A stretch of 64,000 bases of DNA from an uncultured Gammaproteobacteria bacterium (GCA_964641245.1 CAZXML010000004.1:5418-69417), one strand, 5' to 3'. Shown: positions 4,363 through 40,962, counted from the first letter of the stretch. Numbers and translations are program-made. The notes: generated from the sequence alone by a model not told the origin.

Positions 4363-4424
4363 GTCATCCTGAACTTGTTTCAGGATCTACACGATAAAGA
4401 TGCTGAAATAAATTCAGCATGACA
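4363..4424. repeat. Family A palindromic element (hairpin pair TGTCATCCTGAACTTGTTTCAGGATC ... GATGCTGAAATAAATTCAGCATGACA)
   Basis: Two inverted hairpin units separated by about 10 bp. Termini are TGTCAT/ATGACA. Same family as 12889, 30926, 37734, 39325 and 40899. Confidence 0.75.
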
Positions 4425-4440
4425 GCTAAATTTAAATTCT

Positions 4441-5007
4441 ATGTCCGGAGATTCCTTCGACAAATTAATGTATTCATTTGTAATGGATGATGTTTTAAAG
4501 GGGATTTTTATAAGCGTTCCTCCCGGATACGTGGCTTGTGTTTACGATTTGGGCAGAGGCGTATTAAAAAAGGTTTTAACACCCGGTCTTCATTTAAAAA
4601 TTCCGTTTTGGCAAAAAGCCAAATTATTCAATACGCAAACCTTGGAATACAGTATTTCCCGCCAATTTAATCCGGAACACGAAAAAGCCTTGGGCGACAT
4701 TCCAATTGCCGCCGGCACCAAAGACGGCCAGCGCTGTGGGGTGGAAGGAACAATTTTATTGCGTCTGGATGTGCATCAGGTGCCGTCTATCTGGCAAACA
4801 ATCGGGGAAGACTTTGTGGCCAAAATTGTGCGCCCCACTATCCGCAGCCGCATACGCATGGTATTCTCCAAATTTGATTACCAAGACATAGTTGGCGCCA
4901 AAAGAGACGCGGTAGAAATGGAATTAAAGAATGAGCTGGAAAGAATTTTCTATGCCCGCGGAATCTATGTAGAAAATGTTTTGTTAAGCGAAATCGCCAA
5001 AATTTAA
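4441..5007 (+). CDS. SPFH/band-7 (prohibitin/HflC-like) domain protein, short
   Basis: PGLHLKIPFWQKA and downstream SPFH-core pattern. It lacks an N-terminal transmembrane segment and the C-terminal extension of typical family members. Confidence 0.55.
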   Translation: MSGDSFDKLMYSFVMDDVLKGIFISVPPGYVACVYDLGRGVLKKVLTPGLHLKIPFWQKAKLFNTQTLEYSISRQFNPEHEKALGDIPIAAGTKDGQRCGVEGTILLRLDVHQVPSIWQTIGEDFVAKIVRPTIRSRIRMVFSKFDYQDIVGAKRDAVEMELKNELERIFYARGIYVENVLLSEIAKI

Positions 5008-5025
5008 CAGGCACAGTACAAGACA

Positions 5026-5051
5026 AAAAGCCCCTCTTGACGGGGCTTTTT
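5026..5051 (+). terminator. Rho-independent terminator
   Basis: AAAAGCCCC TCTTGAC GGGGCTTTTT hairpin plus T-run, directly after the SPFH gene. Confidence 0.7.
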
Positions 5052-5063
5052 AAGTGTGGTATA

Positions 5064-5090
5064 TTATCACTCGTAAGGTTGGAGTGATAA
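5064..5090. promoter_or_regulatory. CIRCE-like HrcA operator (TTATCACTC-N9-GAGTGATAA)
   Basis: Perfect 9-bp inverted repeat with a 9-bp spacer, 10 bp upstream of hrcA. It differs from the canonical TTAGCACTC-N9-GAGTGCTAA at one position per half-site. Confidence 0.7.
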
Positions 5091-5099
5091 TAACACCCT

Positions 5100-5780
5100 A
5101 TGAATAGTCGTGGTGAAAAAATCTTAAATTTAGTCATTGAAAGCTATATTGCCAACGCCGAACCCGTGGGTTCCAAGTTTTTGGTTTCTGTGGGTGGTTT
5201 GGATTTGGGCGAAGCTACTATTCGCAATGAATTGCGTGCGCTAGAAGAAGAGGGCTTTTTAACTCATCCGCACACTTCGGCCGGAAGAATTCCCACGGAA
5301 AAAGGCTATAAACACTATATTAAAAATCTAAATTTAGCCAAAAGCCACATCTCCAAAAACGACGGTAAAATCCTATCAAATTCCTTGGAAAAAGACACCG
5401 ACCACGAATCATCTTTTAAAAATATGGCCAAAACAATGGTGGAGTTATCCAACGAAACCGTGGTCATTGCTTTTTCACCGGAAAATATATACTATACCGG
5501 TTTATCCAATCTTTTTAACAAGCCGGAATTTACCGAACTAAGTTTGGTAGCCGGCATCTCCGAAATGTTTGACCACTGCGAAGAAAGTCTGGAAGGTTTT
5601 TTTGATAAAGTAGACGTTAACCCGCAATATTTTATCGGCGACGAACATCCTTTCGGCGAAATGCTTAGCGTGGTGTCCATGCGCTTTGGAAAAGACGGAT
5701 TGGTGGCGCTATTGGGACCGAAACGAATGGATTACAAATACAATTTTGGTTTAATGAAAAAATTGTTAGAATTAATTTAA
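5100..5780 (+). CDS. hrcA: Heat-inducible transcription repressor HrcA (short form)
   Basis: N-terminal wHTH EPVGSKFLV...ATIRNELRALEEEGFLTHPHTSAGRIPTEKGY. Sits upstream of grpE. Confidence 0.85.
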   Translation: MNSRGEKILNLVIESYIANAEPVGSKFLVSVGGLDLGEATIRNELRALEEEGFLTHPHTSAGRIPTEKGYKHYIKNLNLAKSHISKNDGKILSNSLEKDTDHESSFKNMAKTMVELSNETVVIAFSPENIYYTGLSNLFNKPEFTELSLVAGISEMFDHCEESLEGFFDKVDVNPQYFIGDEHPFGEMLSVVSMRFGKDGLVALLGPKRMDYKYNFGLMKKLLELI

Positions 5781-5833
5781 CCTCCCCATCAATTCTCTCC
5801 CCTTTTAGGGGAGAGACAGAGAGAGGGGTATCG
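5781..5833. repeat. Family F palindromic repeat (CTCTCCCCTTTTAGGGGAGAGACAGAGAGAGGGGTAT)
   Basis: Single copy between hrcA and grpE. Same family as the clusters at 6684-6834, 7214-7394, 28648-28761 and 57836-57880. Confidence 0.8.
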
Positions 5834-5863
5834 TAAGTAATACTTTAATAATACAAAATATTT

Positions 5864-6683: not shown

Positions 6684-6834
6684 CCTCTTTCGTCCCTCCC
6701 CCTTTTAGGGGGAGGACAGAGGAAGGGGTATCTCGGCGGGTTCTCTCCCTATTAGGGGAGAGATAAAGAGAGGGGTATTTCACTCAATCACTCTCTCCCC
6801 TTTTAGGGGAGAGACAGAGAGATGGGTATTCGGT
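6684..6834. repeat. Family F palindromic repeats, three tandem copies
   Basis: Three ~45-50 bp units, each with core CCCCTTTTAGGGG/CCCTATTAGGGG and tail AGAGAGGGGTAT. They abut the start of the DUF559 gene. Confidence 0.8.
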
Positions 6835-6841: not shown

Positions 6842-7231
6842 TTGAGTATGATCAAAAAATACATCTACAAAAATGCCCACAAACTAAAAGACATACGCCA
6901 ATCACTCCGCGCCAACCCCACCAAGGCCGAAGAGATTCTCTGGCAACACTTAAGACGCAATCAATTAGGTTTTAAATTTCGCAGACAATTCAGCATAAAT
7001 AGTGTAGTCGTGGATTTTTGTAGCGAGCAATTAAAGCTGGTTATAGAAATCGACGGCTGGACGCATGATTTTGAGAAAACACAATTAAAGGATGCACGGA
7101 AACAGAAAATGTTAGAGGAGAATGGGTATAAAGTTGTGCGGTATACAAATGAACAGGTTTATGGGGATATCGGAGTGTTGGTTGGTGGTATAAAGAAAAT
7201 TTGCGACAGCAGGGCTTCCTTCCCCTTTTAG
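6842..7231 (+). CDS. DUF559 endonuclease-domain protein (Vsr-like fold family)
   Basis: AEEILWQHLRRNQLGFKFRRQFSINSVVVDFCSEQLKLVIEIDGWTHD...GYKVVRYTNEQV matches the DUF559 signature. The last seven codons lie inside a family F repeat. Confidence 0.7.
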   Translation: MSMIKKYIYKNAHKLKDIRQSLRANPTKAEEILWQHLRRNQLGFKFRRQFSINSVVVDFCSEQLKLVIEIDGWTHDFEKTQLKDARKQKMLEENGYKVVRYTNEQVYGDIGVLVGGIKKICDSRASFPF

Positions 7232-7394
7232 GGGAAGGACAGAGGATGGGGTATCTGTAGAACAATGTTTACGAACGAATACCCCCACCCTGCCCTCCCC
7301 CTAAAAGGGGGAGGAACGAGACAACGACAAATAGTAGTCAGTACGCTCAATCGCTCCCGCCCCTTTTAGGGGAGGGATAGAGGGAGGGGTATTT
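7214..7394. repeat. Family F palindromic repeats, three copies (middle copy inverted)
   Basis: GCTTCCTTCCCCTTTTAGGGGAAGG..., then ATACCCCCACCCTGCCCTCCCCCTAAAAGGGGGAGGAACGA, then CTCCCGCCCCTTTTAGGGGAGGGATAGAGGGAGGGGTAT. The middle unit is near-identical to 28727-28761. Confidence 0.8.
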
Positions 7395-12888: not shown

Positions 12889-12965
12889 TGTCATCCTGAA
12901 CTTGTTTCAGGATCTAGGTATTTAAAATAGTTATCAAGAGATCCTGAAACATGTTCAGGATGACA
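12889..12965. repeat. Family A palindromic element (hairpin pair with 28-bp spacer)
   Basis: TGTCATCCTGAACTTGTTTCAGGATC ... GATCCTGAAACATGTTCAGGATGACA. Confidence 0.8.
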
Positions 12966-14333
12966 TTAGTAGGACAATTTCCAAATTCCTTCTTTATTTT
13001 TATCTTGATTGATATAGTACAAGATTTTATTTTCGGTGTCAGTGGAAGGATTTATTATTTTTTCATTAATAAAATCGTGGCTTACCAAATAATAGGGGAA
13101 CAGCACCGTGGTTTTGTTTGCCCATCCCAGCGCCAGCGTATTATATTTATCTATCGGCATAACCGCCTGCAAATGTTCTCCGGAGCGATTTAAGAGATAT
13201 GGATCTTCGCCTTCGCTGTATGTCCACACTTCCCACTGCGACCACATTAACCACCAATTATTATATTTAGAAATAAGAAATTTATCCGCGGATATTTTGA
13301 ATTTATTGGAATTAGTAAGAAGGATCATTTCCGAGCCATTAAGATTTTTTAACAAAACCGTATTTTGATGCGCGGCCAGAATTTGCAAATTCTCCGTTTC
13401 TGTTTGGCCGGTAGCCAAATTTATATCCACGGCATCCAGACGGTTAAGAACGGAGTTAAAACCCAGAGTGTCTTTGGTAATTTTGAATTGTTTTGTGGAG
13501 GTTTCCGCCTGCATGGTCCACAACTGGCCGTTTTCCATATACCAATCTATATAGATGTTCTTGGTTATGATTTGAGACTTGGCGGTGGCTGGAGAATATA
13601 AAAAAATGTTTTCCTTGGTGCTGAAATATAGTTGCGGGTCGGCTGTGTTTGCCCATTCAATTTTTTTGATGGGCGCATTATTTTTAACAAGGTCTGTTTG
13701 TTTTGACGGATTTTCCGCGTTAATAATTAAAAGCTTGGAGTAGGGAAAAGCGGCATCTCCGATTAGCGCATAATTATTTTTTTCAGCCCAACGGATGGCG
13801 ATTGGTTCGGCGCTGTTTAAACGGAATATGATGGAAGATTTTCCGGTATTATTGTCCCGCAACCAAACATCGGAAGCGGTCTTATTTTGGATAGTATATA
13901 TTATAAATCTGCCGTCAAAAGAAACGGCGTATCCGGTTATTTTTTCATTGATAAAAATTTCCGGTTTATTTTTTTTAATGAGGCTTAGTTCTTTTGTATA
14001 GTTGGTTTGTTTATTTTTTACTTCAATTTCCTTTAGCCAGTCGTAATACCCGGGCATAGTAATGCGCAAACTGTATTTGGCGGGGGCGATGTTATTTAAA
14101 CGAATAGGCATTTTATCCTCTAGTTTTATGCCGTTTAAATACACAACGGCATCGGCCGGTTCAACATCTATGCTAATGGCGCCTGTTTCCTTCAGCAAAC
14201 CACTCTGCCAATCATAACGGTAGCCGGCCGTATAAAGTATGATAATTGGTGAAATTACAAAAAAAGCGGCTAAAAAAACAATTAGCATTATTAGACGTAC
14301 TAAGTGGGTAAATTTTGTTCCGGGATATTCCAT
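12966..14333 (-). CDS. PEGA-domain membrane-anchored protein with probable beta-propeller C-terminal region
   Basis: N-terminal transmembrane helix. PEGA-like segment AISIDVEPADAVVYLNGIKLEDKMPIRLNNIAPAKYSLRITMPGYYDW. Confidence 0.5.
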   Translation of the reverse strand: MEYPGTKFTHLVRLIMLIVFLAAFFVISPIIILYTAGYRYDWQSGLLKETGAISIDVEPADAVVYLNGIKLEDKMPIRLNNIAPAKYSLRITMPGYYDWLKEIEVKNKQTNYTKELSLIKKNKPEIFINEKITGYAVSFDGRFIIYTIQNKTASDVWLRDNNTGKSSIIFRLNSAEPIAIRWAEKNNYALIGDAAFPYSKLLIINAENPSKQTDLVKNNAPIKKIEWANTADPQLYFSTKENIFLYSPATAKSQIITKNIYIDWYMENGQLWTMQAETSTKQFKITKDTLGFNSVLNRLDAVDINLATGQTETENLQILAAHQNTVLLKNLNGSEMILLTNSNKFKISADKFLISKYNNWWLMWSQWEVWTYSEGEDPYLLNRSGEHLQAVMPIDKYNTLALGWANKTTVLFPYYLVSHDFINEKIINPSTDTENKILYYINQDKNKEGIWKLSY

Positions 14334-14410
14334 CTTGCAAATTATGCTAAATTTTAGTATACTTATATTAGTCTAAAATAGCAGTGAAGTCAAAGGCTAA
14401 ATCGAGGATT

Positions 14411-14468
14411 GGCAATTAACAATTAACAAAAAGCAATCGATTGTTAATTGTTAATTGTTAATTGTTTT
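14411..14468. repeat. Family D palindrome (CAATTAACAATTAACAA-N-TTGTTAATTGTTAATTG) upstream of murA
   Basis: Inverted repeat ending 17 bp before the murA ATG. Relatives at 24026-24095 and 43594-43668. Confidence 0.75.
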
Positions 14469-29158: not shown

Positions 29159-30918
29159 TCTTCTATTGTCAGTTGCAGTTCTCTATTTCCATTCCACTCG
29201 TTCACTCCGATAGAATAAACCATATCTATTTTATCTCCGGGTTTTAGGCATTCTTTCCAATTTTCGGAACAGCGGTTTACATCGCCCAGGCCAAAGCCAA
29301 TAGTTTTTTTAATTAATTGGGAATTGTGTTTCACCATTAGGCGCAAATGTTTGCCGTCCTGGCCCACGGGTTCTATGGCGGTAACGGTTAGTGAGCGGGA
29401 AACATATTTTGGTTCTTCGTTGGCTTGGCCGAAGGGTTCAAATTTTTGTAGTAAGTCGTAAAATTTCCAGTTCACTTCGTCCAGTTCCACTTCCGCGTCT
29501 ATGTTAATTTGCGGAACTAAATCTATGGTGGCAGTTTGCTCCGCGGCCTTGGCGATTAGTTTGGTTTTAAATTCTTCCAATTTGTCTTTGGTTTTTAAAG
29601 TAAAACCGCAGGCTTGCGGGTGGCCGCCGAATTTGTAAAATACTTCCGGCATGGCTTGCATGGCGCCGATTAAACTGAATTCTTTTATACTTCGGCCGGA
29701 ACCGTTTATTTCATTGGCAGTTTCTCCCATTACAATGGACGGTTTGTAGTAGTCATCTTTTAATTTTCCGGAAATTAATCCCAAAATGCCGGTGGGCCAG
29801 TCTTTGCCCAGCACAAATAAAACCGGATTATTTTCCTGGTTGGTTTCTTTTATCTGTTTGCGCGCTTCGTTTACGTATTGTTCAGTAAGTTTTCGGCGGT
29901 CAACATTATTTTGGTCCAGTTGCGCGGCTAAACTGGTGGCTTCTTTTTCGTCTGTGGCCATCAGTAACGCGTAAGCGGTGTTGGCATGATCCATGCGTCC
30001 GGCGGCGTTTAGACGGGGAACAATTTGAAAACTCATGGTATAAGAATCATAAGCCCCATGTTTCGGCTGTCCTTTTTCGTCGGTTAGGCCGGCTACGGCG
30101 AAAAGTTTTTTTAAACCAATATTTCTGGTTTTGTTGATTACGGTTAATCCGTATTTGGTAATAGTGCGCGATTCGCCAACCAACGGCACCATATCGCCGA
30201 TAGAAGCAATGGCCGCCAGATCCAGCATCCATTTTTCAAATCCCTCAAAGGTTTGTCCGTCCGGTAGAGCGTTGTGTGAACGGCCGTATTTTTTTAAAAG
30301 TCCCTGCACCAATTTAAAAGCTACGGCTCCGCCGCATAATCCTTTATCTGGATACGGTTCGCCCTTCACCAGCGGGTGAATAATGGCATTGGCCTTGGGC
30401 AGTTTGGCCGGTACGGTATGATGGTCGGTCACGATTACTTTCATTTTATATTTTCTGGCCAAAGCAATTTCCGGCGCGTTGCTTACTCCGCAATCGCAGG
30501 TAATTATTAAATCTGTTTTTTGCGTATGGAGAAGTTCGATGGTGCGTAAATTTAATCCATAACCGTCGGTTTCGCGGTGGGGGATAAATACATTTACATT
30601 TTTTGCTCCTAATTTCCGTAGTCCGGTAATAATAATAGCCGAGGAACAAACACCGTCCGCGTCATAATCTCCGTGCACCACAATGTTTTCCTGTTTGTCT
30701 ATTGCTTTAAAAATAATATCCGTGGCTTTTTCCATGTCTTGAAATAAAAAAGGATCATGAATATCCTGCGAATAATCCGGATTTAAAAATTCATCAATTT
30801 GCGCTTGAGTGCGCAGATTTCTATTCCACAACAATTGCGCCACCGCCACAGGCAGTTCCGGATGAGAGCCGGTGAATTCCGGCGGTGGCAAGGGTAAAAC
30901 ATTCCACTTCTTAGGCAT
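29140..30918 (-). CDS. recJ: Single-stranded-DNA-specific exonuclease RecJ
   Basis: DHH motifs (VVHGDYDADGV, VIVTDHH) and a DHHA1 domain over 592 aa. Confidence 0.9.
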   Translation of the reverse strand: MPKKWNVLPLPPPEFTGSHPELPVAVAQLLWNRNLRTQAQIDEFLNPDYSQDIHDPFLFQDMEKATDIIFKAIDKQENIVVHGDYDADGVCSSAIIITGLRKLGAKNVNVFIPHRETDGYGLNLRTIELLHTQKTDLIITCDCGVSNAPEIALARKYKMKVIVTDHHTVPAKLPKANAIIHPLVKGEPYPDKGLCGGAVAFKLVQGLLKKYGRSHNALPDGQTFEGFEKWMLDLAAIASIGDMVPLVGESRTITKYGLTVINKTRNIGLKKLFAVAGLTDEKGQPKHGAYDSYTMSFQIVPRLNAAGRMDHANTAYALLMATDEKEATSLAAQLDQNNVDRRKLTEQYVNEARKQIKETNQENNPVLFVLGKDWPTGILGLISGKLKDDYYKPSIVMGETANEINGSGRSIKEFSLIGAMQAMPEVFYKFGGHPQACGFTLKTKDKLEEFKTKLIAKAAEQTATIDLVPQINIDAEVELDEVNWKFYDLLQKFEPFGQANEEPKYVSRSLTVTAIEPVGQDGKHLRLMVKHNSQLIKKTIGFGLGDVNRCSENWKECLKPGDKIDMVYSIGVNEWNGNRELQLTIEDIKKIP

Positions 30919-30925
30919 ACTAGCA

Positions 30926-31004
30926 TGTCATCCTGAATTTATTTCAGGATCTTACGGTTATATTAAAATTGCACGAGAGATTCTGAAACAAGTTCAGAAT
31001 GACA
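30926..31004. repeat. Family A palindromic element
   Basis: TGTCATCCTGAATTTATTTCAGGATC ... GATTCTGAAACAAGTTCAGAATGACA. Confidence 0.8.
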
Positions 31005-31008
31005 AAGG

Positions 31009-31410
31009 TTATAGTTCTTTTTTGTCTCGAAAACTGTTTAACGTAATTTTTTTAAAATCCCAGTACGAATCGGCCAGGAGCAGAGTGAAGATAATAAAAA
31101 ATATATTTACCGTGGTGTATTCTTCCGCGGAAATAGGGTTGTTGAAGTTTAAAAAAAGAATAATGCCCAGCGCAATCCAATAAATTAATGTTTTGCTTGT
31201 CACGCCTCTTCTTTCCGCAATATTTATTTTACTTCTTATTTCCCAAACGTAAATAAAATACAGAAAAATTAGCGGTCCGGCTGTAAACCATTCGTAATTA
31301 TGCGGGTCTTCGCCGTAATAAGACAAGCCAAAAAAAAGCAGACCAATAATTAAAATTAAAGCAAAGAAAAGAAAGATTATATCCAGCTGGTATTTGCGGA
31401 GAACTTTCAT
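31009..31410 (-). CDS. Hypothetical integral membrane protein
   Basis: Four predicted transmembrane helices. No motif. Confidence 0.4.
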   Translation of the reverse strand: MKVLRKYQLDIIFLFFALILIIGLLFFGLSYYGEDPHNYEWFTAGPLIFLYFIYVWEIRSKINIAERRGVTSKTLIYWIALGIILFLNFNNPISAEEYTTVNIFFIIFTLLLADSYWDFKKITLNSFRDKKEL

Positions 31411-31558
31411 AGGGCAGTGTTGAGCGCTAAGTACTAAGCGCTAAGTACTAAGTTATTGGAGGGCGGGTAGAAAAGAAAAGACCAGCATCGCCAGAATACC
31501 CACAAAAGAAACCACAATCCAAAGTTTTTTTATGGTTTTTCGTTTCATAGAATGATGT

Positions 31559-32560
31559 TTATTTTTTCCGTATATTTAACAATTTATCAATTTCTTCTTC
31601 GGTGGTTGGCAGTTTGATTCCCATTTCTTCTATTTTTTTTCTTAACAAGTCGTTATGCTCTTTTTGGTTTAAGGCTTCCGTCATGTCTCCTAATGAGCCG
31701 CCAATATTCTTTGAAAAGGCGCGTATTTGATCTGTGGATAAATTAACCACTAACTTCCTGATAGCCCAGCTCATTTTGTTGTTGTCTTTGGTAACACCCC
31801 ACAGTATGACACCCATAGCGCCCTCCATCAGATCTCTGGCGTAAACATCATCATTTATAATCTCCTGCGGATTTTTAATCAACCTCCTCTGAATTTCATT
31901 GCTTGTGGGAAAGACAATAGTGTCTCTACCCAGCATCATTTTGGAAGACTGTAATTCTGTCTTCAACTTTTTATGCAGCGAGGTGTGTACAGCCCCAATA
32001 CTAATTAGCACCCGAATATTTTTTTTATTTTTTAGTTGGGGAAATTTTTGAGTCAATGTTTTTAATTTATTTTTTAGTTGATTGGCAATAAAATCTTCCC
32101 TTCTTCTTATGCTAGAGGCGAAGTCCACCGTTCCTTTTTTTAGGTTTTCCATGGCTTTATCAAAATTACCAATTTCAAAATCATCATAAGCTCCCGTTAT
32201 TTCTTTTATGGCGTCTATTGTTTCTTTGATTTCGGGATGTTCTGCGGGTAAATCCACAAAAATAATTGGTATTTTGGAGTTATAAATTAAATGCAATGGT
32301 GTTTCAAAGCCGGGATGGCCATCTATTCGTGGAGGTTCTATTTTACCTTGAGATACTGCGTTAAAACCTTGCTCATCTATATTTTCCCAGCCCACAAATT
32401 CCGGAACATAAACATCGGCATTTTTTAAAGCTTCCGGCAAACGACTAAAATCCTCGGCTGTTCCATGATATGAAAAAAAGAAATCAACCGTAATTTTTGG
32501 TTCTGTTTCTTTGCTTTCTTTATTGCTCTCTGGAGCGTGCCCGGGTTTTATTTCCGACAT
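31559..32560 (-). CDS. Hypothetical protein
   Basis: 333-aa ORF with consistent coding composition. No motif recognised. Confidence 0.4.
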   Translation of the reverse strand: MSEIKPGHAPESNKESKETEPKITVDFFFSYHGTAEDFSRLPEALKNADVYVPEFVGWENIDEQGFNAVSQGKIEPPRIDGHPGFETPLHLIYNSKIPIIFVDLPAEHPEIKETIDAIKEITGAYDDFEIGNFDKAMENLKKGTVDFASSIRRREDFIANQLKNKLKTLTQKFPQLKNKKNIRVLISIGAVHTSLHKKLKTELQSSKMMLGRDTIVFPTSNEIQRRLIKNPQEIINDDVYARDLMEGAMGVILWGVTKDNNKMSWAIRKLVVNLSTDQIRAFSKNIGGSLGDMTEALNQKEHNDLLRKKIEEMGIKLPTTEEEIDKLLNIRKK

Positions 32561-32562
32561 AA

Positions 32563-34380
32563 CTATCTTTTTAATACGGCCAGATAAGTCTCCGGCGGAA
32601 TATCTATTTTTCCGTGAGTCAACATGCGTTTCTTGCCTTTTTTCTGTTTTTGCAATAATTTTTGTTTGCGGGTGTAATCGCCGCCGCTCATGGTGGCCAG
32701 CACATCTTTGCGCAGAGCGGATAGGCGGTCCGAGGCAATTACTTTTCCGCCAATGGTGGCTTGAATTTTTAGCACAAATTGTTGTCTAGGCAGGGATTCT
32801 TTTAGGGATTCCACTATAGTTTTGCCGGCTTTATAGGCTTGGTCTTCCCAAACCAGCGTGGAAAGAGCTTCCACCGGTTCTTCGGCTACCATTATATCCA
32901 GCCTTACCACCTTGGTTGGCTGGTAATCCATAAATTCGTAGTTCATGGACGCGTAGCCCGAGCTGACGGTTTTTAGTTTATCATAAAAATCGGTAACAAG
33001 CGAGGCAAGTGGAATTTCGTAGTGTAGCATAGCCCGCTGGTCGGTGTCCGTGCTTAAATATTCGGTATTTATATATTTTCCTTTGCGTTCGGAAACTAAG
33101 CCCATCACATTACCTGTAAAACTTTTGGGAGTAATAATATCCAGCTTCATCCACGGTTCCAAAATCTCCAGCAGATGATTGGGGTCGGGCATTTCCTGCG
33201 GACTGTGAATAGTTTTTTGTACGCCGGCTTGAGTGGTAATTTTGTAGGCCACGCTGGGTACGGTAATAATAATTTCCAAATTGTATTCGCGTTGTAATCT
33301 TTCCTGAAAAATATCCAGGTGTAATAAACCTAAAAATCCACAGCGAAAACCAAAACCCAGAGCCAAAGAATGTTCCGGTTCGTAAAAAAGGGAGGCGTCG
33401 TTTAATTTTAATTTATCTATGGCGTCGCGAAGCACCTGATAATTGTCGCCCTCTTTGGGAAAGATGCCGGCATACACCATTGGCTTTACTTCTTTATATC
33501 CGGGCAGAGCCAAAGTATGAATATCTTTTTCTTCTTCGTCTGTAAAAGTGGTAATGGTGTCGCCAACCCGGCATTCTTTGAGATCTTTTAGGCCGGTGAC
33601 AACATAACCGATTTCGCCGTTGAATAATTTAGGCGTAGATTGGAATTTCGGTTTATAATATCCCACTTCTAAAATATCCGCCGGCGTTCTGGTGCCAATT
33701 AAAAATATTTTGTCGCCTTTTTTTAATTCGCCGTCCACAATTCTTACCGATGCAATAACACCTTTGTAATCGTTATAAACAGAATCAAAAATTAAAGCGC
33801 GGGTGGGTTGGGTGCTTGTGTCCGGCGGAGGAGTCACTCTCTCAATAATCGCTTTTAAAATATCCTCCACGCCTTGCCCGGTTTTGCCCGAGGCCAGAAT
33901 GATTTCTTCCGGCTTGCATCCCAGCAAATGCAAAATTTCCGCTTTGGTTTTTTCCACATTGGCGGCCGGCATGTCTATTTTATTTATCACCGGAATAATT
34001 TTTAAATTTTGTTCAATCGCCAGATACAAATTGCCGATAGTTTGCGCCTGCACGCCCTGGCTGGCATCTACCAATAAAATAGCGCCTTCCACCGCGGCCA
34101 GAGAACGGGAAACTTCATAGTTAAAATCCACATGGCCGGGAGTGTCGATTAAATTTAGGATGTAGCTTGTAGCTTGTAGCTTGTAGTCCATGCGGACGGG
34201 CGTTAACTTAATAGTAATTCCTCTTTCCCGCTCTAAGTCCATGGAATCAAGGAGTTGATCCTGCATGTCCCGGTGCGCCACTGTGCCTGTAAATTCCAAA
34301 AGACGATCGGCCATGGTGCTTTTACCGTGGTCAATATGGGCAATGATACAGAAGTTTCGGATGTTGTTGTTGGTTGACAT
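32563..34380 (-). CDS. lepA: Elongation factor 4 (LepA)
   Basis: NFCIIAHIDHGKSTMADRLLE G-domain and the LepA-specific C-terminal domain over 605 aa. Confidence 0.95.
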   Translation of the reverse strand: MSTNNNIRNFCIIAHIDHGKSTMADRLLEFTGTVAHRDMQDQLLDSMDLERERGITIKLTPVRMDYKLQATSYILNLIDTPGHVDFNYEVSRSLAAVEGAILLVDASQGVQAQTIGNLYLAIEQNLKIIPVINKIDMPAANVEKTKAEILHLLGCKPEEIILASGKTGQGVEDILKAIIERVTPPPDTSTQPTRALIFDSVYNDYKGVIASVRIVDGELKKGDKIFLIGTRTPADILEVGYYKPKFQSTPKLFNGEIGYVVTGLKDLKECRVGDTITTFTDEEEKDIHTLALPGYKEVKPMVYAGIFPKEGDNYQVLRDAIDKLKLNDASLFYEPEHSLALGFGFRCGFLGLLHLDIFQERLQREYNLEIIITVPSVAYKITTQAGVQKTIHSPQEMPDPNHLLEILEPWMKLDIITPKSFTGNVMGLVSERKGKYINTEYLSTDTDQRAMLHYEIPLASLVTDFYDKLKTVSSGYASMNYEFMDYQPTKVVRLDIMVAEEPVEALSTLVWEDQAYKAGKTIVESLKESLPRQQFVLKIQATIGGKVIASDRLSALRKDVLATMSGGDYTRKQKLLQKQKKGKKRMLTHGKIDIPPETYLAVLKR

Positions 34381-34382
34381 TT

Positions 34383-35999
34383 TTACTCGTTATTACTGAT
34401 GGGTTCCGCAGTCGGCAAATTTTTGGTTTGCAACCAGCGACGGGTTAAGCTTTCCTTTAATTGCATTAACTCCGGCACCCTCAAAAGGTAGCATATCAGC
34501 AGATAAATTGCCAGACCCAGCAGGCTGGCGATTAAGCCTTGCCCGAGGATACCAAAAAAGCGGGTTTGGTCAAAAATTGCGGCCAGTGGGTATTTGGAAA
34601 ATTGGATAACTAAAGCCATGGGAATGGCGGCCAGCATGATGCGGAAGAAGGATGACAGTATTTTTTCTCCGTCTATGCTTTTTAAATGACTGCGTAGAGC
34701 GATGGTTAAAATAAAAAAGTTTAAAATGGAGCCGATGGAAAACGCCAGAGCCAAACCGGCCACGCCCAGCGGTTTCATTAATAATAAAGCGGCGATGATG
34801 CTGAACAGTTCGGAAATTACACCGACAATAAACGGAGTTTTGGTGTTGGCCAGCGCGTAGAAGGCGCGGGCAATTACCGGAATTAATGCTTGGGCGAATA
34901 AGCTTAACGAGAACAAAGCCAAAGTGTCAGCGGTGTTTATGGTGGCAGTCCAGTCAAATTTTCCGGTTCCCAAAACCACGCGCACAATCTGCGCCCGGAG
35001 CAACATAATTATAATAGAGAAGGGGATAATTAAAAATAAAATCTGGCGGATGGTTGCGGATAGATTTTTTATAAACTCCCTCATGTTATTTTGCGATGCG
35101 GCCATAGACAGCACCGGGAAAACGGCGAGCGCGAACGGAATACCGATAATGCCGATGGGTACGGCCTGTAAATTGTTGGCAAAATGAAAAATCGCCACAC
35201 TTCCCACGGGGAGTAAAGACGCAATCATGGTGATGATGACCATATTTAATTGGCTGATAGCCAATCCCATGGTGCGCGGAATCATTAGTCTGCCAATTAG
35301 TTTAGTTTCTTTGTCGCGCCAGTTTAAGTGCCAGCGCCAGCGGTAGCCGTTGGTATAGGCGCTGTAAGTTTGTAAACTAAAATGCAGAAACGCGCCCAGC
35401 ACCACGCCCCAGGCCAAACCGGTTACGCCCCAGATTGGCACGAGTACAGTGGCGCCGATTATAATGCCGACGTTATAAAAAATCGGCGCCAGGGAATAGA
35501 GGAAAAAAGTACGCAAAGATTGTAAAACCCCGCCGATGACCATGGACAGGCCGAGCAGAATAGTGGAGCCAAACATTATTCTGGTGAAACTTATTACCAA
35601 CTCTTTGGATGCGGGGATAAAACCAGGGGCAATGAGGGGAGCGAGGGCCGGGGTGAAAATTATGCCGAGAAAACTGACTACACCCAAAGAAACAGCGGTA
35701 ATATTTAAAACATTGTTGGCCAATTTCCAGGCCGGAGATTTGTCTTCGCCGGAATTAAATAATTTTGTGAAGGCGGGAATAAAAGCCGCCGAAAGCGCGC
35801 CGATAATTAAAAGATTATAAACCAAATCCGGAATTTTAAAGGCAGCATAGTAAGCATCCATAATTGGCCCGGCGCCAAAATTATGGGCAAAAATCCGGTC
35901 GCGCAACAATCCAACTAAACGGCTAACCAAAGTAGCGCCGGAAATAATAATCGCGGCGCCAGTTATGGATTTGGATTGGCCGTTGAGAATTTTTAACAT
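34383..35999 (-). CDS. murJ: Lipid II flippase MurJ (MviN)
   Basis: N-terminal SRLVGLLRDRIFAHNFGAGPIMDAYYAAFKIPD. About 14 transmembrane helices. Confidence 0.85.
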   Translation of the reverse strand: MLKILNGQSKSITGAAIIISGATLVSRLVGLLRDRIFAHNFGAGPIMDAYYAAFKIPDLVYNLLIIGALSAAFIPAFTKLFNSGEDKSPAWKLANNVLNITAVSLGVVSFLGIIFTPALAPLIAPGFIPASKELVISFTRIMFGSTILLGLSMVIGGVLQSLRTFFLYSLAPIFYNVGIIIGATVLVPIWGVTGLAWGVVLGAFLHFSLQTYSAYTNGYRWRWHLNWRDKETKLIGRLMIPRTMGLAISQLNMVIITMIASLLPVGSVAIFHFANNLQAVPIGIIGIPFALAVFPVLSMAASQNNMREFIKNLSATIRQILFLIIPFSIIIMLLRAQIVRVVLGTGKFDWTATINTADTLALFSLSLFAQALIPVIARAFYALANTKTPFIVGVISELFSIIAALLLMKPLGVAGLALAFSIGSILNFFILTIALRSHLKSIDGEKILSSFFRIMLAAIPMALVIQFSKYPLAAIFDQTRFFGILGQGLIASLLGLAIYLLICYLLRVPELMQLKESLTRRWLQTKNLPTAEPISNNE

Positions 36000-36001
36000 A
36001 A

Positions 36002-36709
36002 TTACTGGTTACCAAACGGGTCTTCTTCCGGAATTGGATTTTCCAGACCAAGGTTCACCGTCAGCACCACATAATCCGTGCCCGGCTTTACAGTGTTGTC
36101 GCCTTCTACATATATAGAACCGGTAATAGTGTCTTGGCTGAATGAAAATTGCCGTACGGCCTGCCCTTCGCTTTCCACATCTATTTTATAACCTCTTTTT
36201 TGCAGTTCGGTTTTGTAATAATTTATTATAAACGTCGGCTCGGCATCAAGATTTCTCCATTCAATTTGTACAGTGTCGCGATGGTCGCTTACCGGCGTGC
36301 TGATTATTTTCCACAAATTTTTTACGGAAGCCAATTTTCCGGTGTCTTCCGCGCTTTGTTCGCTTTTATTTAAAGTAAGAAAAAGCGGAGATAAAATTAT
36401 TTTAGGAAAAAAAGCGGCAATTTCTATGCCCCGGTTTTTATATTTTCCGGAAACAAAAGTTATTTGTTCGATATTGTCTTCGTCGTAAATTGTAATATCT
36501 TTGGGGAAATTTTCGGGAATATTTTTTAATGTTTGGGGGCCGCTTCCCAAGGCCAGACGGAGAAAAATGGCAATGCCGATAAGAAACACAACCAAACAAC
36601 CGCACCCGGTAAAACAGGTGCGTTTAATAGAGGAAAATGCCGAGTATCTTTTGGTTAGTTCGCCAATTGGCGGTTCTACTATTTCAACATTGTTTATGTT
36701 GCGTCGCAT
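36002..36709 (-). CDS. Hypothetical membrane-anchored protein
   Basis: N-terminal transmembrane helix. No motif. Confidence 0.4.
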   Translation of the reverse strand: MRRNINNVEIVEPPIGELTKRYSAFSSIKRTCFTGCGCLVVFLIGIAIFLRLALGSGPQTLKNIPENFPKDITIYDEDNIEQITFVSGKYKNRGIEIAAFFPKIILSPLFLTLNKSEQSAEDTGKLASVKNLWKIISTPVSDHRDTVQIEWRNLDAEPTFIINYYKTELQKRGYKIDVESEGQAVRQFSFSQDTITGSIYVEGDNTVKPGTDYVVLTVNLGLENPIPEEDPFGNQ

Positions 36710-36908
36710 ACCAGAATATTATAGCAGAAAATAACATATTTGTGAATATTGTGTATTGTTGAATTTTATTTCGTAATAAAATTCACTTCAGAGTGAGCCA
36801 CAGCGAGTGAAGGAGAGTCCTAATTATGTTTGTGAACTGTCTTGTCGCCCGCAATTGTGTGTGTTACAGTTTAGTTAGCACATTGAACAACCAACCGGGA
36901 GAAGGAAC

Positions 36909-37571
36909 ATGAATTTCGGCTTCTTTTTAATCATGATGTTTGTGGTTTTGGTGATTGCTGTCGTAGCTGTGATGAATATGAGAAAGCCCGCCTCAAAAAA
37001 AGGCGACGCAAACAATGTGGATCAATGGCTTTTCATTGAATATGCGCCCACAAAAATGAGCGGATTGGAAATCAGAGGATTTACGGCTGCGTCTTCGGTG
37101 CAAGATGAATTGCTGGTGGCGGGACGTGAGTTGCTGAAAAAACTGCCACCCGATATCGGTGCCGATCTGAAGTCTCCGGTTTCCGGTAATCTGGCGACGT
37201 TGTTTTCGCAAAGTTCCAACCCAAACAATCTTGCGCCTGATGAAGTTGTGGCTGCCGTCGCGGTGGCAGAAGCCTCGCTGGCTCTTTGGGCATTGATGTC
37301 GCGGTTTGATTGCAGAGTGAAGCCTCCTCATCCGCATCCGGTAATTTTTGATGAGAGCGCCGGCAACTTTATTGTCAGTCAAAAGTCATATAGCGTTTGC
37401 TATGTTATTGGGCGAATCAGCTTCAGCGCCGGCGTAAGCCTGGCCATGGCCACTTTCATGTGGGAAGGTATCGCGCAAATACTGAAGGAAGGCAAAGTGC
37501 CCATTCCCGGTTTGAAGGTAAATAAGGATATTCTAATCGTTTCCAAAGTCGATGTAACTGAAAAAAAGTAA
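36909..37571 (+). CDS. Hypothetical membrane-anchored protein (GC-elevated)
   Basis: N-terminal transmembrane helix. Compositionally distinct from its neighbours. Confidence 0.4.
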   Translation: MNFGFFLIMMFVVLVIAVVAVMNMRKPASKKGDANNVDQWLFIEYAPTKMSGLEIRGFTAASSVQDELLVAGRELLKKLPPDIGADLKSPVSGNLATLFSQSSNPNNLAPDEVVAAVAVAEASLALWALMSRFDCRVKPPHPHPVIFDESAGNFIVSQKSYSVCYVIGRISFSAGVSLAMATFMWEGIAQILKEGKVPIPGLKVNKDILIVSKVDVTEKK

Positions 37572-37733
37572 TAACAGAGTTGTGCTACAGCGCCCGGTTC
37601 ACCCCGCGCGCTTTTTTTATTGTCCGCATCCGTCTTTTTGAAGCAAAGCTTTGCAATTACGTCGGGCTTCAAAAGAAAAAAAATTTACTTTCTTCTTTAT
37701 TCAGCCCTAGCAATTGTGGTATACTTGTTCTAT

Positions 37734-37801
37734 GTCATGCTGAATTTATTTCAGCATCTAAACGGATGGCGATAGATCCTGAAACAAGTTCAGGATGACA
37801 A
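37734..37801. repeat. Family A palindromic element
   Basis: TGTCATGCTGAATTTATTTCAGCATC ... GATCCTGAAACAAGTTCAGGATGACA. Confidence 0.8.
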
Positions 37802-37814
37802 TTATAAAACATCT

Positions 37815-39170
37815 ATGCAACTTTCATTTTTCGGCGCGGCGGGAGAAGTAACCGGTTCGTGCAATATGTTCACGACCGGCGGGAAAAAGTTTTTGGTTGA
37901 CTGCGGGATGTTCCAGGGCAGTCAATTTAACGAAGACAAAAATAATGATCCGTTTGGTTTTGAACCTAAAGAAATTTCCGGAGTAATAATAACGCACGCG
38001 CATTTAGACCATGTGGGACGTTTGCCGTTGCTGGTAAAAAACGGATACGAGGGTAAATTTTTTGCCACACCTCCCACCGTAGAATTAACCGAATTAATTT
38101 TAGACGATGCTTTGCAAATCATGCTTTACAATCAGCGCCATTTTGGCAAGCCGGTTTTATATAACAGTACTGACATCGCTAAAGTTGTGGAGCGTTTTAA
38201 GGCAGTGGATTATCATCAAAAATATTCGCTTACTCCGGATGTGGCTTTTACTTTTTATGATGCCGGGCATATTTTTGGTTCGGCTTTTGTAAAAATAGAG
38301 GCCGAAGGAAAAAAAATAATTTTCTCCGGTGATATCGGCAACATTAACGTGCCAATCTTGCGCGACACCGACACCTTGCCTGGCGGCGTGGATGTTTTGG
38401 TTTGTGAATCAACTTACGGCGACCGTTTGCATGAGTCCGCTATGCAACGCCAGGAAATTTTAGAAAAATTAATTTCTACGGCTATTAGTAAAGGCGGCAC
38501 ATTAATGATCCCGTCTTTTTCTTTGGAACGGACTCAAGAATTAATTTATGATTTAAACGATTTGGTGGCGCGCAAACACAAACTTCCGCATGTGCCGATT
38601 TTTTTGGATAGTCCGCTGGCCATCAAAGCCACCAAAGTTTATTTAAAATATCCAAAATATTACGACGCCGAAGCCACGCGTTTAACCAAAAGCGGAGATG
38701 AGTTATTTAAATTTCCCGGATTGGTAATGACTGCCACAAAAGAAGAATCCAAAAAAATAAATCAGATGCCGGGAACAAAAATAATTATTGCCGGCGCGGG
38801 CATGATGAACGGCGGCCGCATTGTGCATCACGCTATGCGTTATTTATCCGACGCCAGAAATACTTTGCTCATCATCGGCTATCAGGCGCAAAATACTTTA
38901 GGCCGAAAAATTTTAGACGGACACTCGCCGGTAGAAATTATGGGAGAAAAAATTCCCGTCCACTGCCACGTCAAAGCCATCGGCGCTTTATCCGCCCACG
39001 GCGATCAAGATAAACTTTTAGATTGGATAGGCGGCGGATTGTCCGTTCCCAAACAAGTAATACTTACTCATGGCGAACCGGCCGCGTCTTCCGCCTTGGC
39101 CAAAAGATTGGTGGGGGATTTAGGAGTAAAAGCAACGCCAGCCAGTTTTGGATTAACAATTGAGGTATAA
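37815..39170 (+). CDS. MBL-fold beta-CASP family ribonuclease (RNA-metabolising metallo-beta-lactamase)
   Basis: HAHLDHVGRLP motif and beta-CASP motifs over 451 aa. Confidence 0.7.
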   Translation: MQLSFFGAAGEVTGSCNMFTTGGKKFLVDCGMFQGSQFNEDKNNDPFGFEPKEISGVIITHAHLDHVGRLPLLVKNGYEGKFFATPPTVELTELILDDALQIMLYNQRHFGKPVLYNSTDIAKVVERFKAVDYHQKYSLTPDVAFTFYDAGHIFGSAFVKIEAEGKKIIFSGDIGNINVPILRDTDTLPGGVDVLVCESTYGDRLHESAMQRQEILEKLISTAISKGGTLMIPSFSLERTQELIYDLNDLVARKHKLPHVPIFLDSPLAIKATKVYLKYPKYYDAEATRLTKSGDELFKFPGLVMTATKEESKKINQMPGTKIIIAGAGMMNGGRIVHHAMRYLSDARNTLLIIGYQAQNTLGRKILDGHSPVEIMGEKIPVHCHVKAIGALSAHGDQDKLLDWIGGGLSVPKQVILTHGEPAASSALAKRLVGDLGVKATPASFGLTIEV

Positions 39171-39191
39171 TTAAACTAAACTTATCCACAG

Positions 39192-39216
39192 CCCTCGCAA
39201 GTGCGGGGGTTTTTGT
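39192..39216 (+). terminator. Rho-independent terminator
   Basis: CCCTCGC AAGT GCGGGGG followed by TTTTTGTTTT. Confidence 0.55.
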
Positions 39217-39324
39217 TTTATATTAGCCAAATAAATCGATGTTAAAAATGGATTTAAATGTTGACGAGTGTTTTTAAGTGGAGTAAAATGGATACAGGTG
39301 GGAAGAAGTGGGGACCACAGCAAA

Positions 39325-39387
39325 TGTCATGCTGAACTTGTTTCAGCATCTTTCGACGACAGATCCTGAAACAAGTTCAGGATGACA
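39325..39387. repeat. Family A palindromic element
   Basis: TGTCATGCTGAACTTGTTTCAGCATC ... GATCCTGAAACAAGTTCAGGATGACA. The 3' terminus supplies an in-frame ATG upstream of mraZ. Confidence 0.8.
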
Positions 39388-39399
39388 AATAAAAAATAT

Positions 39400-39831
39400 A
39401 TGTTCATCGGTGAATATAGCCATAGCATTGACGAAAAAGGAAGAATGGCCATACCGGTCAAATTTAGGCACGACCTAAAAAACGGCGCGGTTGTCACCCG
39501 CGGTTTGGATAATTGTTTATTTATCTACACCAAAAGCGAGTGGGCAAAGGTGGCAGAAAAATACGCCAACTTGCCAATCGCGCAAGCCAACAGCCGGGCG
39601 TTTTCCCGTTTAATGCTGGCCGGCGCCATGGATGTAGAATTGGACAAACAAGGAAGAATAATGTTGCCGGAATATTTGCGCGAGTTTGCGACTGTAAAAA
39701 AGAATGTGGTAATCGCCGGACTTTATAGCCGATTAGAAATTTGGGATGAGGAAGTTTGGAATAAGTATAAAGGTCAAACCGAAGCCGAAAGCGGCGCGAT
39801 TGCGGAGAAGATGTCAGAGCTCGGTGTATAG
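39400..39831 (+). CDS. mraZ: Transcriptional regulator MraZ
   Basis: MFIGEYSHSIDEKGRMAIPVKFR closely parallels the canonical MraZ N-terminus, so the real start is probably 39400. The track start at 39382 is the repeat-borne ATG. Confidence 0.85.
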   Translation: MFIGEYSHSIDEKGRMAIPVKFRHDLKNGAVVTRGLDNCLFIYTKSEWAKVAEKYANLPIAQANSRAFSRLMLAGAMDVELDKQGRIMLPEYLREFATVKKNVVIAGLYSRLEIWDEEVWNKYKGQTEAESGAIAEKMSELGV

Positions 39832-39927
39832 AAATTACGAAATAAAGAAATTAAGAAATTAATTTCCGTGAGATCACTCAAGAGACCGAACAAATTTCCC
39901 AATTTCTTAATTTCATTATCATGCATT

Positions 39928-40896
39928 ATGCGTCACGAACCTGTGTTGCTGAAAGAAATTCTAGAATTGTTTGATCTTAAACCCAATGATAATGTTGTTG
40001 ATTGTACTTTGGGTGATGCGGGACACAGTGAAGCGATGCTGGAAAAAATTGCGCCTAAAGGAAAATTGTTGGGTATAGATCTGGATATGGAAGCGGTGTT
40101 GCGGGCGAAAAGATTTTTGTATCGTTTCGGAGATAAAGCCATAATTGTCAGAAATAATTTTACTAATTTAAAAAAAATAACAGATGAATCAAATTTCGGT
40201 CCGGTAAACGCAATTCTGATGGACTTGGGCTGGTCGTCTCCACAATTCGCAGAGAGGGGGAGAGGATTCAGTTTTCAGACGGACGAGCCACTAGACATGC
40301 GATATGACGCCTCTTGTCATTCTGAACGAAGTGAAGAATCCCTTAACAACGGAGAGGGATCCTTCGTTCCACTCAGGATGACAACACAAACGGCCGCCGA
40401 CGTTGTGAACATTTACAGCGAACAGGAATTGGCGGGAATTTTAAAAAACTTTGGCGAGGAAAATTTGAGTAAAGAGATAGCCGAAGCAATTGTTGGTTTC
40501 AGGAAGAATAAAAAATTGGAAAAAACAGGGGAGTTGGCGGAAATAATTTTACAGGTTTATCGGACAAAATTACATTCCGATAAAGCCATTCCCTGGATAG
40601 GCGGTTTGCATCCGGCCACAAAAGTTTTTCAAGCGCTACGAATGGAAGTAAATCACGAATTGGATAATTTAAAATTGGCGTTGCCTCAAGCCGTAGATGT
40701 ATTGGCAACAGGCGGGCGCCTCGCGGTCATTACATTTCATTCGTTAGAAGACAGAATCGTAAAACATTTTTTTCAATCAATCGCGGGTAAAACAATTAAA
40801 TTAATAAATAAAAAACCAATCAGCGCGACCGATGAAGAAATAAAATTAAATCCCCGCAGTCGTAGCGCCAAATTACGGGTAGTGGAGAAAATTTAA
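39928..40896 (+). CDS. rsmH: 16S rRNA (cytosine1402-N4)-methyltransferase RsmH, carrying an in-frame 23-codon palindromic insert
   Basis: MRHEPVLLKEILE start, GFSFQTDEPLDMRYD ... TAADVVN and the C-terminal domain. The track start at 39868 is upstream and probably spurious. Confidence 0.85.
   Translation: MRHEPVLLKEILELFDLKPNDNVVDCTLGDAGHSEAMLEKIAPKGKLLGIDLDMEAVLRAKRFLYRFGDKAIIVRNNFTNLKKITDESNFGPVNAILMDLGWSSPQFAERGRGFSFQTDEPLDMRYDASCHSERSEESLNNGEGSFVPLRMTTQTAADVVNIYSEQELAGILKNFGEENLSKEIAEAIVGFRKNKKLEKTGELAEIILQVYRTKLHSDKAIPWIGGLHPATKVFQALRMEVNHELDNLKLALPQAVDVLATGGRLAVITFHSLEDRIVKHFFQSIAGKTIKLINKKPISATDEEIKLNPRSRSAKLRVVEKI
40315..40383 (+). mobile_element. 69-bp palindromic element inserted in frame in rsmH (TGTCATTCTGAACGAAG ... 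CTTCGTTCCACTCAGGATGACA)
   Basis: Terminal inverted repeats of the family A/B type. Length is 69 bp, exactly 23 codons. It encodes CHSERSEESLNNGEGSFVPLRMT between the conserved DMRxD and TAADVVN segments. Confidence 0.7.
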
Positions 40897-40898
40897 AC

Positions 40899-40962
40899 TG
40901 TCATGCTGAATTTATTTCAGCATCTATGTCGTGACAGATCCTGAAACAAGTTCAGGATGACA
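40899..40962. repeat. Family A palindromic element
   Basis: TGTCATGCTGAATTTATTTCAGCATC ... GATCCTGAAACAAGTTCAGGATGACA. Confidence 0.8.

Follow-up and report, generated by a model that had tools for sequence, protein, structure and literature searches.

We analysed a window of 64,000 nucleotides (GCA_964641245.1, CAZXML010000004.1:5418-69417) in which six paired-hairpin elements lie between genes, three of them within 3.2 kb around mraZ and rsmH (Table 1). The original prediction, made from this sequence, had described six such copies, each built from two inverted hairpins, and a truncated copy at 15799-15810. All six are present, with boundaries at most 1 nt from those first given, and so is the truncated one. 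The 26-mer GATCCTGAAACAAGTTCAGGATGACA, with up to three mismatches allowed, has nine matches in the window, compared with 0.00 expected from 100 dinucleotide shuffles, and the core CTGAANNNNTTTCAG has 25 matches where 1.3 were expected. A structural scan for arms, defined as GTC followed by an 8-9-nt stem, a 3-7-nt loop and the complementary stem, returned 12 arms with perfect 8-bp stems at the six element sites. All six elements are head-to-head dimers with the TGTC tags outermost.

The arms follow a single formula without exception (12 of 12): T-GTC-AT[C/G/T]CTGAA-(CTTGT, TTTAT or CATGT)-TTCAG[G/C/A]AT-CT. Arm sequences of this element type are TGTCATCCTGAACTTGTTTCAGGATCT and TGTCATGCTGAATTTATTTCAGCATCT. 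Four copies combine a G-type stem (ATGCTGAA) with a C-type stem (ATCCTGAA), one combines C with T and one C with C, so that the stems differ between the two arms in five of the six copies (heterodimers). The spacer between the arms measures 10-27 nt and is poorly conserved, the arms far better.

Table 1. Paired-hairpin elements and other repeats, by position in the window
Feature	Position	Strand	Sequence	Context
Dimer 1	4362-4424		Left arm TGTC-ATCCTGAA-CTTGT-TTCAGGAT-CT; right arm, on the opposite strand, TGTC-ATGCTGAA-TTTAT-TTCAGCAT-CT; spacer 10 nt	4 nt past the stop codon at 4357; 16 nt before the ATG at 4441
Dimer 2	12889-12965		Both arms C-type (ATCCTGAA)	Abuts the TAA stop (12966-12968) of the minus-strand gene 12966-14333
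Dimer 3	30926-31004		Arms ATCCTGAA/TTTAT and ATTCTGAA/CTTGT	Between the minus-strand genes 31009-31410 and 29140-30918
Dimer 4	37733-37800		G-type arm ATGCTGAA/TTTAT and C-type arm ATCCTGAA/CTTGT	Ends 14 nt 5' of the MBL/beta-CASP gene ATG at 37815
Dimer 5	39325-39387		G-type and C-type arm	Within the mraZ leader; preceded by a conserved promoter/GTGGG-repeat block (39261-39320) and followed by the true mraZ ATG (39400)
Dimer 6	40899-40962		G-type and C-type arm	Begins 2 nt past the rsmH stop (40896)
Truncated arm	15799-15811	+	TGTCATCCTGAAC; tag and 5' stem half only, no 3' half	Begins 9 nt past the stop codon at 15789
Related, distinct palindrome	28092-28128		TGTCATCCC-(19 nt)-GGGATGACA; only the TGTCAT/ATGACA ends in common with the dimers	
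Second hairpin family	5796-5830, 6690-6735, 6745-6777, 6793-6830, 7217-7252, 7282-7316, 7351-7390			
AT-rich inverted repeats	14408-14471, 24014-24094, 43585-43676; 39834-39919, 44911-45006			

Arm structure and placement

Pairing within the arms holds in 96 of 96 cells over the six copies, with GC-to-CG and CG-to-UA double changes among them. The minimum-energy fold of the whole element, as DNA or as RNA, is one long hairpin. We rejected this long arm-to-arm hairpin as the selected structure, as it leaves the variable positions unpaired in five of six and four of six copies. The variable positions pair only within arms; therefore, selection acts on the single arm.

Compensatory change extends well beyond the window. 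In a cross-phylum set of 55 distinct partner arms, picked by the tag GTCAT alone, 80% were paired, compared with 27-47% when the partner was slid. Double-change cells numbered 53 against 22+/-4 in shuffles, and none of 500 shuffles reached 53. Stem positions 3 and 5 account for most of these changes. Compensatory change has thus preserved the hairpin between very distant lineages, and secondary structure is conserved between copies, a point on which the original prediction had staked itself.

All six elements lie between co-directional open reading frames (ORFs). Four sit 0-4 nt from the upstream stop codon, and the distance from element to next start codon is 7-38 nt. Six copies are too few for a test of whether they cluster around mraZ-rsmH. 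The original prediction had seen in this arrangement a regular placement at start codons. The elements are indeed close to starts, but the regularity is largely a by-product of very short intergenic spacers (about 30 nt, as in the empty rsmH-ftsL spacer of a relative).

This placement could also be expected of host-selected RNA elements that stabilise the mRNA 5' of them, reduce read-through or influence translation of the gene that follows, like some Escherichia coli repetitive extragenic palindromes (REPs). The predicted RNA folds are strong (-26 to -40 kcal/mol, z-scores of -5 to -10), copy 5 is 12 nt away from the mraZ ATG, within the leader, and Di Nocera et al. argue that many REPs are transcribed (Di Nocera 2013, PMC3733652). 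However, the short spacers already account for the placement, and no copy is followed by a U-tract. A terminator scan reported none of the four copies in 30000-41500 as a terminator; the site listed at 39318-39334, which overlaps copy 5, is a weak chance 5-bp stem over its left end and not the element hairpin, and a separate canonical terminator lies at 39190-39211. Nor is the orientation of the G- and C-type arms to transcription fixed, copy 1 being inverted relative to copies 4-6. We consider selection for an RNA function improbable, also in light of the enzyme and the relatives described below, and the role in transcript processing, stability or termination that the original prediction suggested has gained no support.

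Relation to CGTC-tagged repeats and ssn-like genes

The elements are TGTC-tagged REP hairpins of the CGTC-REP or Ssn-related-motif (SRM) class, a described kind of repeat, in a variant without a gene. This match to a described family with a known protein partner was overlooked in the original prediction. In CGTC-tagged REPs the tag is often TGTC, the stem has 8-9 bp and nearly always starts with AT, the loop has 4-5 nt and a short tail follows. They are mostly head-to-head dimers, often heterodimers, are located close to where the upstream ORF ends, and in some cases are intragenic (PMC3733652). The superfamily includes Neisseria dRS3 and Rickettsia RPE-4 and RPE-6 (BMC Genomics 14:522).

Tag, stem, loop, tail, dimer arrangement and position next to the upstream ORF all recur in the window. 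TGTC precedes the stem in all 12 arms, and all 12 combine the 8-bp stem AT[C/G/T]CTGAA with a 5-nt loop and the tail CT. Among 257 AT-stem units in the 120 hairpin loci listed, GTC is preceded by T in 214 and by C in 35. Dimers in the loci listed comprise 79 head-to-head, 25 tail-to-tail and 11 head-to-tail pairs; 76 of the 79 head-to-head pairs are heterodimers, and ATCCTGAA with ATGCTGAA is the commonest gene-less dimer across phyla (24 of 79).

The window's elements therefore share with the superfamily the unpaired (C/T)GTC tag, the AT-start 8-bp stem with its 5-nt loop and short tail, the head-to-head and frequently heterodimeric arrangement, and the post-stop position between co-directional genes. 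Two further likenesses, intragenic copies now and then and spurious extensions of N-termini, are taken up below. The window's elements differ in their AT-rich stem (ATCCTGAA, versus the GC-rich stems listed there), in the tail CT (the commonest CGTC-REP tail is CCA), in spacers of 10-27 nt (usually 20-100) and in a host that is probably one of the Patescibacteria, outside the five phyla reported for CGTC-REPs. Rfam at gathering thresholds returned only a tRNA over the whole window, and at permissive E-values over 37600-41100 it returned nothing credible (best 29 bits versus a 97-bit cutoff). A search of literature full text found no paper with the repeat's 15-mers.

The protein partner is known from Neisseria. 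SsnA of N. meningitidis is a 94-aa single-domain GIY-YIG nuclease that binds the NTS repeat, which contains dRS3, as single-stranded DNA only and cuts it a few nucleotides upstream (Chenal 2025, PMC11893778). GTC 5' of the palindrome determines cutting and a C directly 3' of it determines binding; both are invariant in the 12 window arms. Homologues of ssn are usually flanked by such motifs, an arrangement likened to an insertion sequence (PMC11893778). SsnA does not bind RNA (PMC11893778), and the GTC tag and the 3' C of the two arms of a dimer lie on opposite strands, which is sensible for DNA and not for one transcript; both points argue against RNA elements.

The window thus shares with the NTS/SRM-SsnA system (Nat Commun 16:2388) dispersed repeats, mostly outside genes, with a conserved GTC and 3' C. 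In that system, GTC-AT-palindrome-ATC hairpins stand on both sides of a gene for a single-domain GIY-YIG protein of about 95 aa. The window differs in that its arms miss the published motif pattern, that it holds no ssn gene, and that its pairs are mostly gene-less heterodimers whose arm types are the two ends of gene-carrying cassettes. As far as our reading of Chenal (2025) goes, this last correspondence is not drawn there.

The association with ssn-like genes was seen from both the hairpin and the protein side. A GIY-YIG family of about 100 aa recurs in 6 of the 120 hairpin loci listed, in 5 of the 6 within about 110 nt of a hairpin, and all six ORFs match PF01541. A metagenome search from the GIY-YIG protein alone returned 80 loci. 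In these, tagged hairpins reach 4.7 (upstream) and 5.5 (downstream) per kb within 200 nt of the gene and 0.1-0.9 further off, a 10-40-fold enrichment. At least one tagged hairpin is near the gene in 70 of the 80 loci, and in 45 hairpins stand on both sides with tags outward. Typically, the upstream unit has the orientation of the gene and the downstream unit the reverse, which places the gene inside a head-to-head dimer. Judged by the tag alone, 55% of GTCA[TC] tags close to the gene have a hairpin behind them in which 7 or more of 8 positions pair; beyond 500 nt, 4.7% do.

Arms of the CTGAA type stand beside the gene in 26 of these 80 protein-selected loci. Loop-4 (NTS-like) arms occur in 32, several of which (e.g. 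L142 and L157) match the published NTS letter for letter. Since such arms flank them, the nearby GIY-YIG proteins probably belong to the Ssn family. The flanking proteins match PF01541 and have 95-104 aa and a single domain; in several loci, L142 and L157 among them, canonical NTS-like arms flank homologues that are 51-72% identical. In 52 of 58 comparisons a protein and its nearest relative share the arm type, where permutations gave 29 on average and 43 at most; this fits co-evolution of enzyme and site, or shared descent.

One cassette resembles dimer 1 very closely. Locus L166 carries, in order, TGTCATCCTGAACTTGTTTCAGGATCT, 23 nt, a 96-aa ssn ORF, 5 nt and GATGCTGAAATAAATTCAGCATGACA. Its 27-nt left and 26-nt right arms are identical to window positions 4362-4388 and 4399-4424, and dimer 1 has a 10-nt spacer where L166 has the ssn ORF. 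The same arrangement, exactly ATCCTGAA upstream and ATGCTGAA/TTTAT downstream of the ssn gene, occurs in L137, L166 and L186. Among 19 cassettes with 5-nt-loop arms on both sides, 14 pair a G-type with a pyrimidine-type arm, and the latter is 5' of the gene in 11 of these 14 (11 versus 3). We regard distinct left and right cassette ends as a trend, not as proof. Close homologues of the L166 nuclease (70-79% identity) are named as Levybacteria and Microgenomates; therefore, judging by sequence, bacteria of the candidate phyla radiation (CPR) encode the enzyme. A tblastn search among the ssn loci found no close relative of the window organism.

A two-hairpin unit that accompanies a small gene recalls REPINs mobilised by RAYT, an IS200-like Y1 transposase (Bertels and Rainey 2011). 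The architecture, two inverted REP hairpins and a spacer, is the same, and both systems have a non-autonomous two-hairpin unit tied to one small nuclease or transposase gene flanked by repeats. However, the REPIN tag is GTAG and not GTC, and the enzyme has the HUH Y1 transposase fold rather than GIY-YIG. REPINs are lineage-specific and vertically inherited, whereas the window's 26-mer occurs unchanged in more than 10 phyla. Di Nocera et al. found neither a transposase associated with CGTC-tagged REPs nor a RAYT flanked by them (PMC3733652), and the 120 hairpin loci listed contain no recurrent transposase-like family, while GIY-YIG does recur, abutting hairpins. Mobilisation by a RAYT is thus very unlikely here.

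Distribution, empty sites and possible mobility

The 26-mer is not confined to this genome. An exact search, with one genome per species, found it in at least 120 genome stretches from more than 10 phyla, so that many further copies exist elsewhere. The hosts listed are Patescibacteria (many classes), Gracilibacteria, Melainabacteria, Elusimicrobia, Dependentiae, Spirochaetes, Alpha-, Gamma- and Deltaproteobacteria, Rickettsiales, Bacteroidota, Balneolaceae and a metagenome-assembled genome (MAG) labelled Heliobacteriaceae. Single arms occur alone in many genomes. The exact 26-mer is also present in 12 predicted viral contigs (IMG/VR, L210-L221), in several as dimers with other arm types; the examined stretches of these contigs hold no ssn gene and yield nothing firm on phage transfer.

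One copy lies within a gene. In a Gammaproteobacteria MAG (L027, 1031-1056), the 26-mer is in frame inside a RarA/MgsA-like AAA ATPase (...DLQKILKQVQDDKKQGRKAILFVDE...). Compared with E. coli RarA, the ATPase apparently has no obvious change in length at the 26-mer, and the copy looks more like a replacement than a simple insertion. Its position inside coding sequence is a further point against RNA elements.

The nearest named RsmH homologues, at 76-77% identity, are from Patescibacteria/Magasanikbacteria MAGs. On this basis, the host of the window is probably a CPR bacterium (Patescibacteria), and an assignment to Bacteroidota (Sphingobacteriia) was rejected on the same homologues. A T4SS_pilin gene lies just upstream of the window (L207). 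Twelve arms per 64 kb is a high density for small CPR genomes.

Syntenic contigs, with RsmH 92, 80, 77 and 76% identical, keep the same gene order over 5-9 kb. Copies 37733, 39325 and 40899 are absent from all of them. The closest relative (L202, RsmH 92% identical) lacks dimers 4 and 5 at their sites; in its mraZ leader the promoter/GTGGG block is conserved and is followed by 37 unrelated nt in place of the element. The rsmH-ftsL spacer of L204 is a clean empty site, where the same downstream sequence (...ATTCTTAATTC.TAATTCAACCGTTGTGTCCCTAAAACGCC) follows the stop codon directly, and the comparison of filled with empty shows no target duplication. Because syntenic relatives have empty sites, mobility like that of miniature inverted-repeat transposable elements (MITEs), as first proposed, is plausible. 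The relatives also do without the elements altogether, which again counts against an RNA role for the host; such a role is not favoured, and is possible as a side effect.

Ordinary MITEs with terminal inverted repeats (TIRs), moved by a DDE transposase, are another conceivable origin. In favour of it, the two ends match over their outer 26-27 nt as near-perfect inverted repeats, and the elements measure 63-79 bp. However, none of the six copies has a flanking target-site duplication, compensatory changes preserve every 'TIR' as a palindrome in its own right, and single arms stand alone in many genomes. The gene found between such arms is, moreover, that of a GIY-YIG nuclease. We therefore hold this origin to be extremely improbable.

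We suggest that the elements are likely gene-less, Ssn-type hairpin pairs, that is, non-autonomous, MITE-like derivatives of arm-ssn-arm cassettes. On single-stranded DNA, each arm would fold alone into an 8-bp hairpin with GTC 5' and C 3'. A single-domain Ssn-family GIY-YIG nuclease of about 95 aa would recognise the folded arm and, if it acts as in the tested cases, would bind the single-stranded form only and nick a few nucleotides upstream of the tag. The pair would correspond to the two ends of an arm-ssn gene-arm cassette minus the gene. As a non-autonomous, MITE-like unit it would have landed in the very short spacers between co-directional genes, and its strong hairpins in the RNA of operon transcripts would be side effects, as would the spurious ATGs. 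We infer that the organism's own Ssn enzyme binds and cuts the arms and that this activity moves them.

Several points weigh against this proposal. Neither the 64-kb window nor the 5.5 kb of contig added on one side contains an ssn or GIY-YIG ORF, and a partner enzyme encoded in the window's own genome is hypothetical. The published SRM pattern, HGTCWYN(0-2)YYVSBRHN(0-5)WNVSBRGN(0-2)RNCYNB, has no match in the window; because their stems are AT-rich, the arms fail it at GC-rich stem positions, while the canonical NTS passes. The GIY-YIG protein has no NCBIfam model and no solved relative in a PDB sequence search, and the membership of the nearby proteins in cd10448 is presumed from sequence.

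The mode of movement raises further difficulties. No transposition by an Ssn enzyme has been demonstrated (PMC11893778). IS200/IS605 elements also have sub-terminal hairpin ends recognised as single-stranded DNA and lack target-site duplications and classical terminal inverted repeats. However, their two cleavages are on one strand, whereas the recognisable strands of a head-to-head dimer are opposite, and the enzyme is unrelated; an IS200/IS605-like 'peel and paste' does not follow directly. The spacers of the six window copies are also only weakly alike, which is not expected from copy-and-paste of one master dimer. Spacers are conserved in other genomes (L193, Mucilaginibacter group).

The same hairpins could instead be domesticated protein-binding sites. 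They would mark incoming or displaced single-stranded DNA for cutting by Ssn, and natural transformation or recombination would be tuned in this way; having spread long ago, the hairpins would now be immobile. NTS and SsnA modulate transformation in N. meningitidis (PMC11893778), the arms are far better conserved than the spacers, and the recurrence of one and the same 26-mer in many phyla suggests that a conserved enzyme constrains it. However, the three mraZ-region copies are missing in a relative with 92% identical RsmH, which points to recent gain or loss. The lack of an ssn gene in the window and its 5.5-kb extension counts against domestication as well, and the functional evidence is limited to Neisseria. 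Overall, we think domestication rather unlikely.

A broader version of the mobile-derivative proposal can be offered more tentatively. The arm-ssn-arm cassettes themselves may possibly be GIY-YIG-driven mobile elements with two unlike ends, usually C/T-type 5' and G-type 3'. The gene-less heterodimers would then be their passengers, spread horizontally through more than 10 phyla including the CPR.

False start codons, other repeats and implications

The end of an element, ...GGATGACA, holds a spurious in-frame ATG. As the original prediction had proposed, repeat-borne in-frame ATGs occur at 39382 (mraZ, from the end of dimer 5), 12894 (rnhA, from the TGTCAT end of dimer 2) and 28123 (GT4 fragment). 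The extended ORFs begin MTNKKY-MFIGEYSHSIDEKGR (mraZ), MTNKL-MKVIIFTDGG (rnhA) and MTITFVY-MKVIHIIPS (GT4). Position 1 of the Pfam MraZ profile falls on residue 7 of the long ORF, and the RNase_H profile also begins at residue 7. MraZ has 143 aa in four of five relative loci and 152 aa in L204. The public JGI gene call for this very sequence gives MraZ as 149 aa; therefore, the false ATG was used. For the GT4 fragment, whose likely true start is 28144, the false ATG is indeed hairpin-borne, but the hairpin is the different palindrome at 28092-28128, which may be a collapsed dimer or another sub-family. ATGs in the remaining four elements are out of frame or quickly stopped. Di Nocera et al. 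considered REPs in predicted N-termini to be probable annotation errors (PMC3733652).

Other repeats and leaders lie in the same window. A second hairpin family reads (T/C)CTCCCCTTTTAGGGGAG(A/G)GACAGAGrGrGGGGTAT, with TGTC preceding it on the other strand. Six of its copies bracket a 129-aa ORF at 6842-7231 that matches DUF559/MTES_1575, a Vsr-like endonuclease (Pfam E 1.6e-29); this may be another small nuclease gene with its own flanking hairpins. Similar CCCTCCC...GGGAGGG hairpins stand beside the 26-mer in L018, L088, L089, L095 and L111. AT-rich intergenic inverted repeats consist of AATTAACAATTAGCAA-like and AAGAAATTAAGAAAT-like units; one of them lies between mraZ and rsmH, where the spacer of L202 has only 9 nt.

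Upstream of dimer 5, positions 39261-39320 hold a promoter-like TTGACG-17-TAAAAT followed by GTGGA/TGGAT/GTGGGA/GTGGGGA repeats about 10 nt apart, conserved with L202. These repeats are likely MraZ operator boxes, with element 5 inserted between them and the mraZ ATG. A strong promoter-like TTGACA-17-TATACT and a leader of about 140 nt precede a DEAD-box helicase gene (41852-42026); the leader contains the palindrome GGTCATTCGACC(G/T)G(G/A)CG(T/C)C(A/C)GGTCGAATGACC at 41932-41961, has no Rfam match and could be a structured leader or a small RNA. An ORF for a 23S rRNA-intervening-sequence protein (PF05635) lies at 49028-49411, beside an ORF of similar size without a Pfam match (49499-49873). 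Genes of the PF05635 family are often multi-copy and repeat-associated.

The findings bear on annotation as well as on repeat biology. The repeats make gene callers add five to seven false codons to MraZ, RNase H and other proteins, as in the public JGI call. Surveys with the SRM pattern under-count Ssn target sites in AT-rich and CPR genomes. The analysis adds three things: AT-rich arms of this type are tied to ssn cassettes, they occur in a probable CPR genome, and relatives have empty sites. Gene-less dimers keep the arm types that bracket ssn, empty sites exist and protein clade tracks arm type; these three observations make the question of how CGTC-REPs spread directly testable. If the cassettes are indeed mobile, horizontal spread together with enzyme specificity would explain the identical 26-mer everywhere. 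Ssn would then be the missing mobilising enzyme of the CGTC-REP superfamily, and the cassettes would be the first bacterial family of hairpin-end transposons run by a GIY-YIG nuclease.

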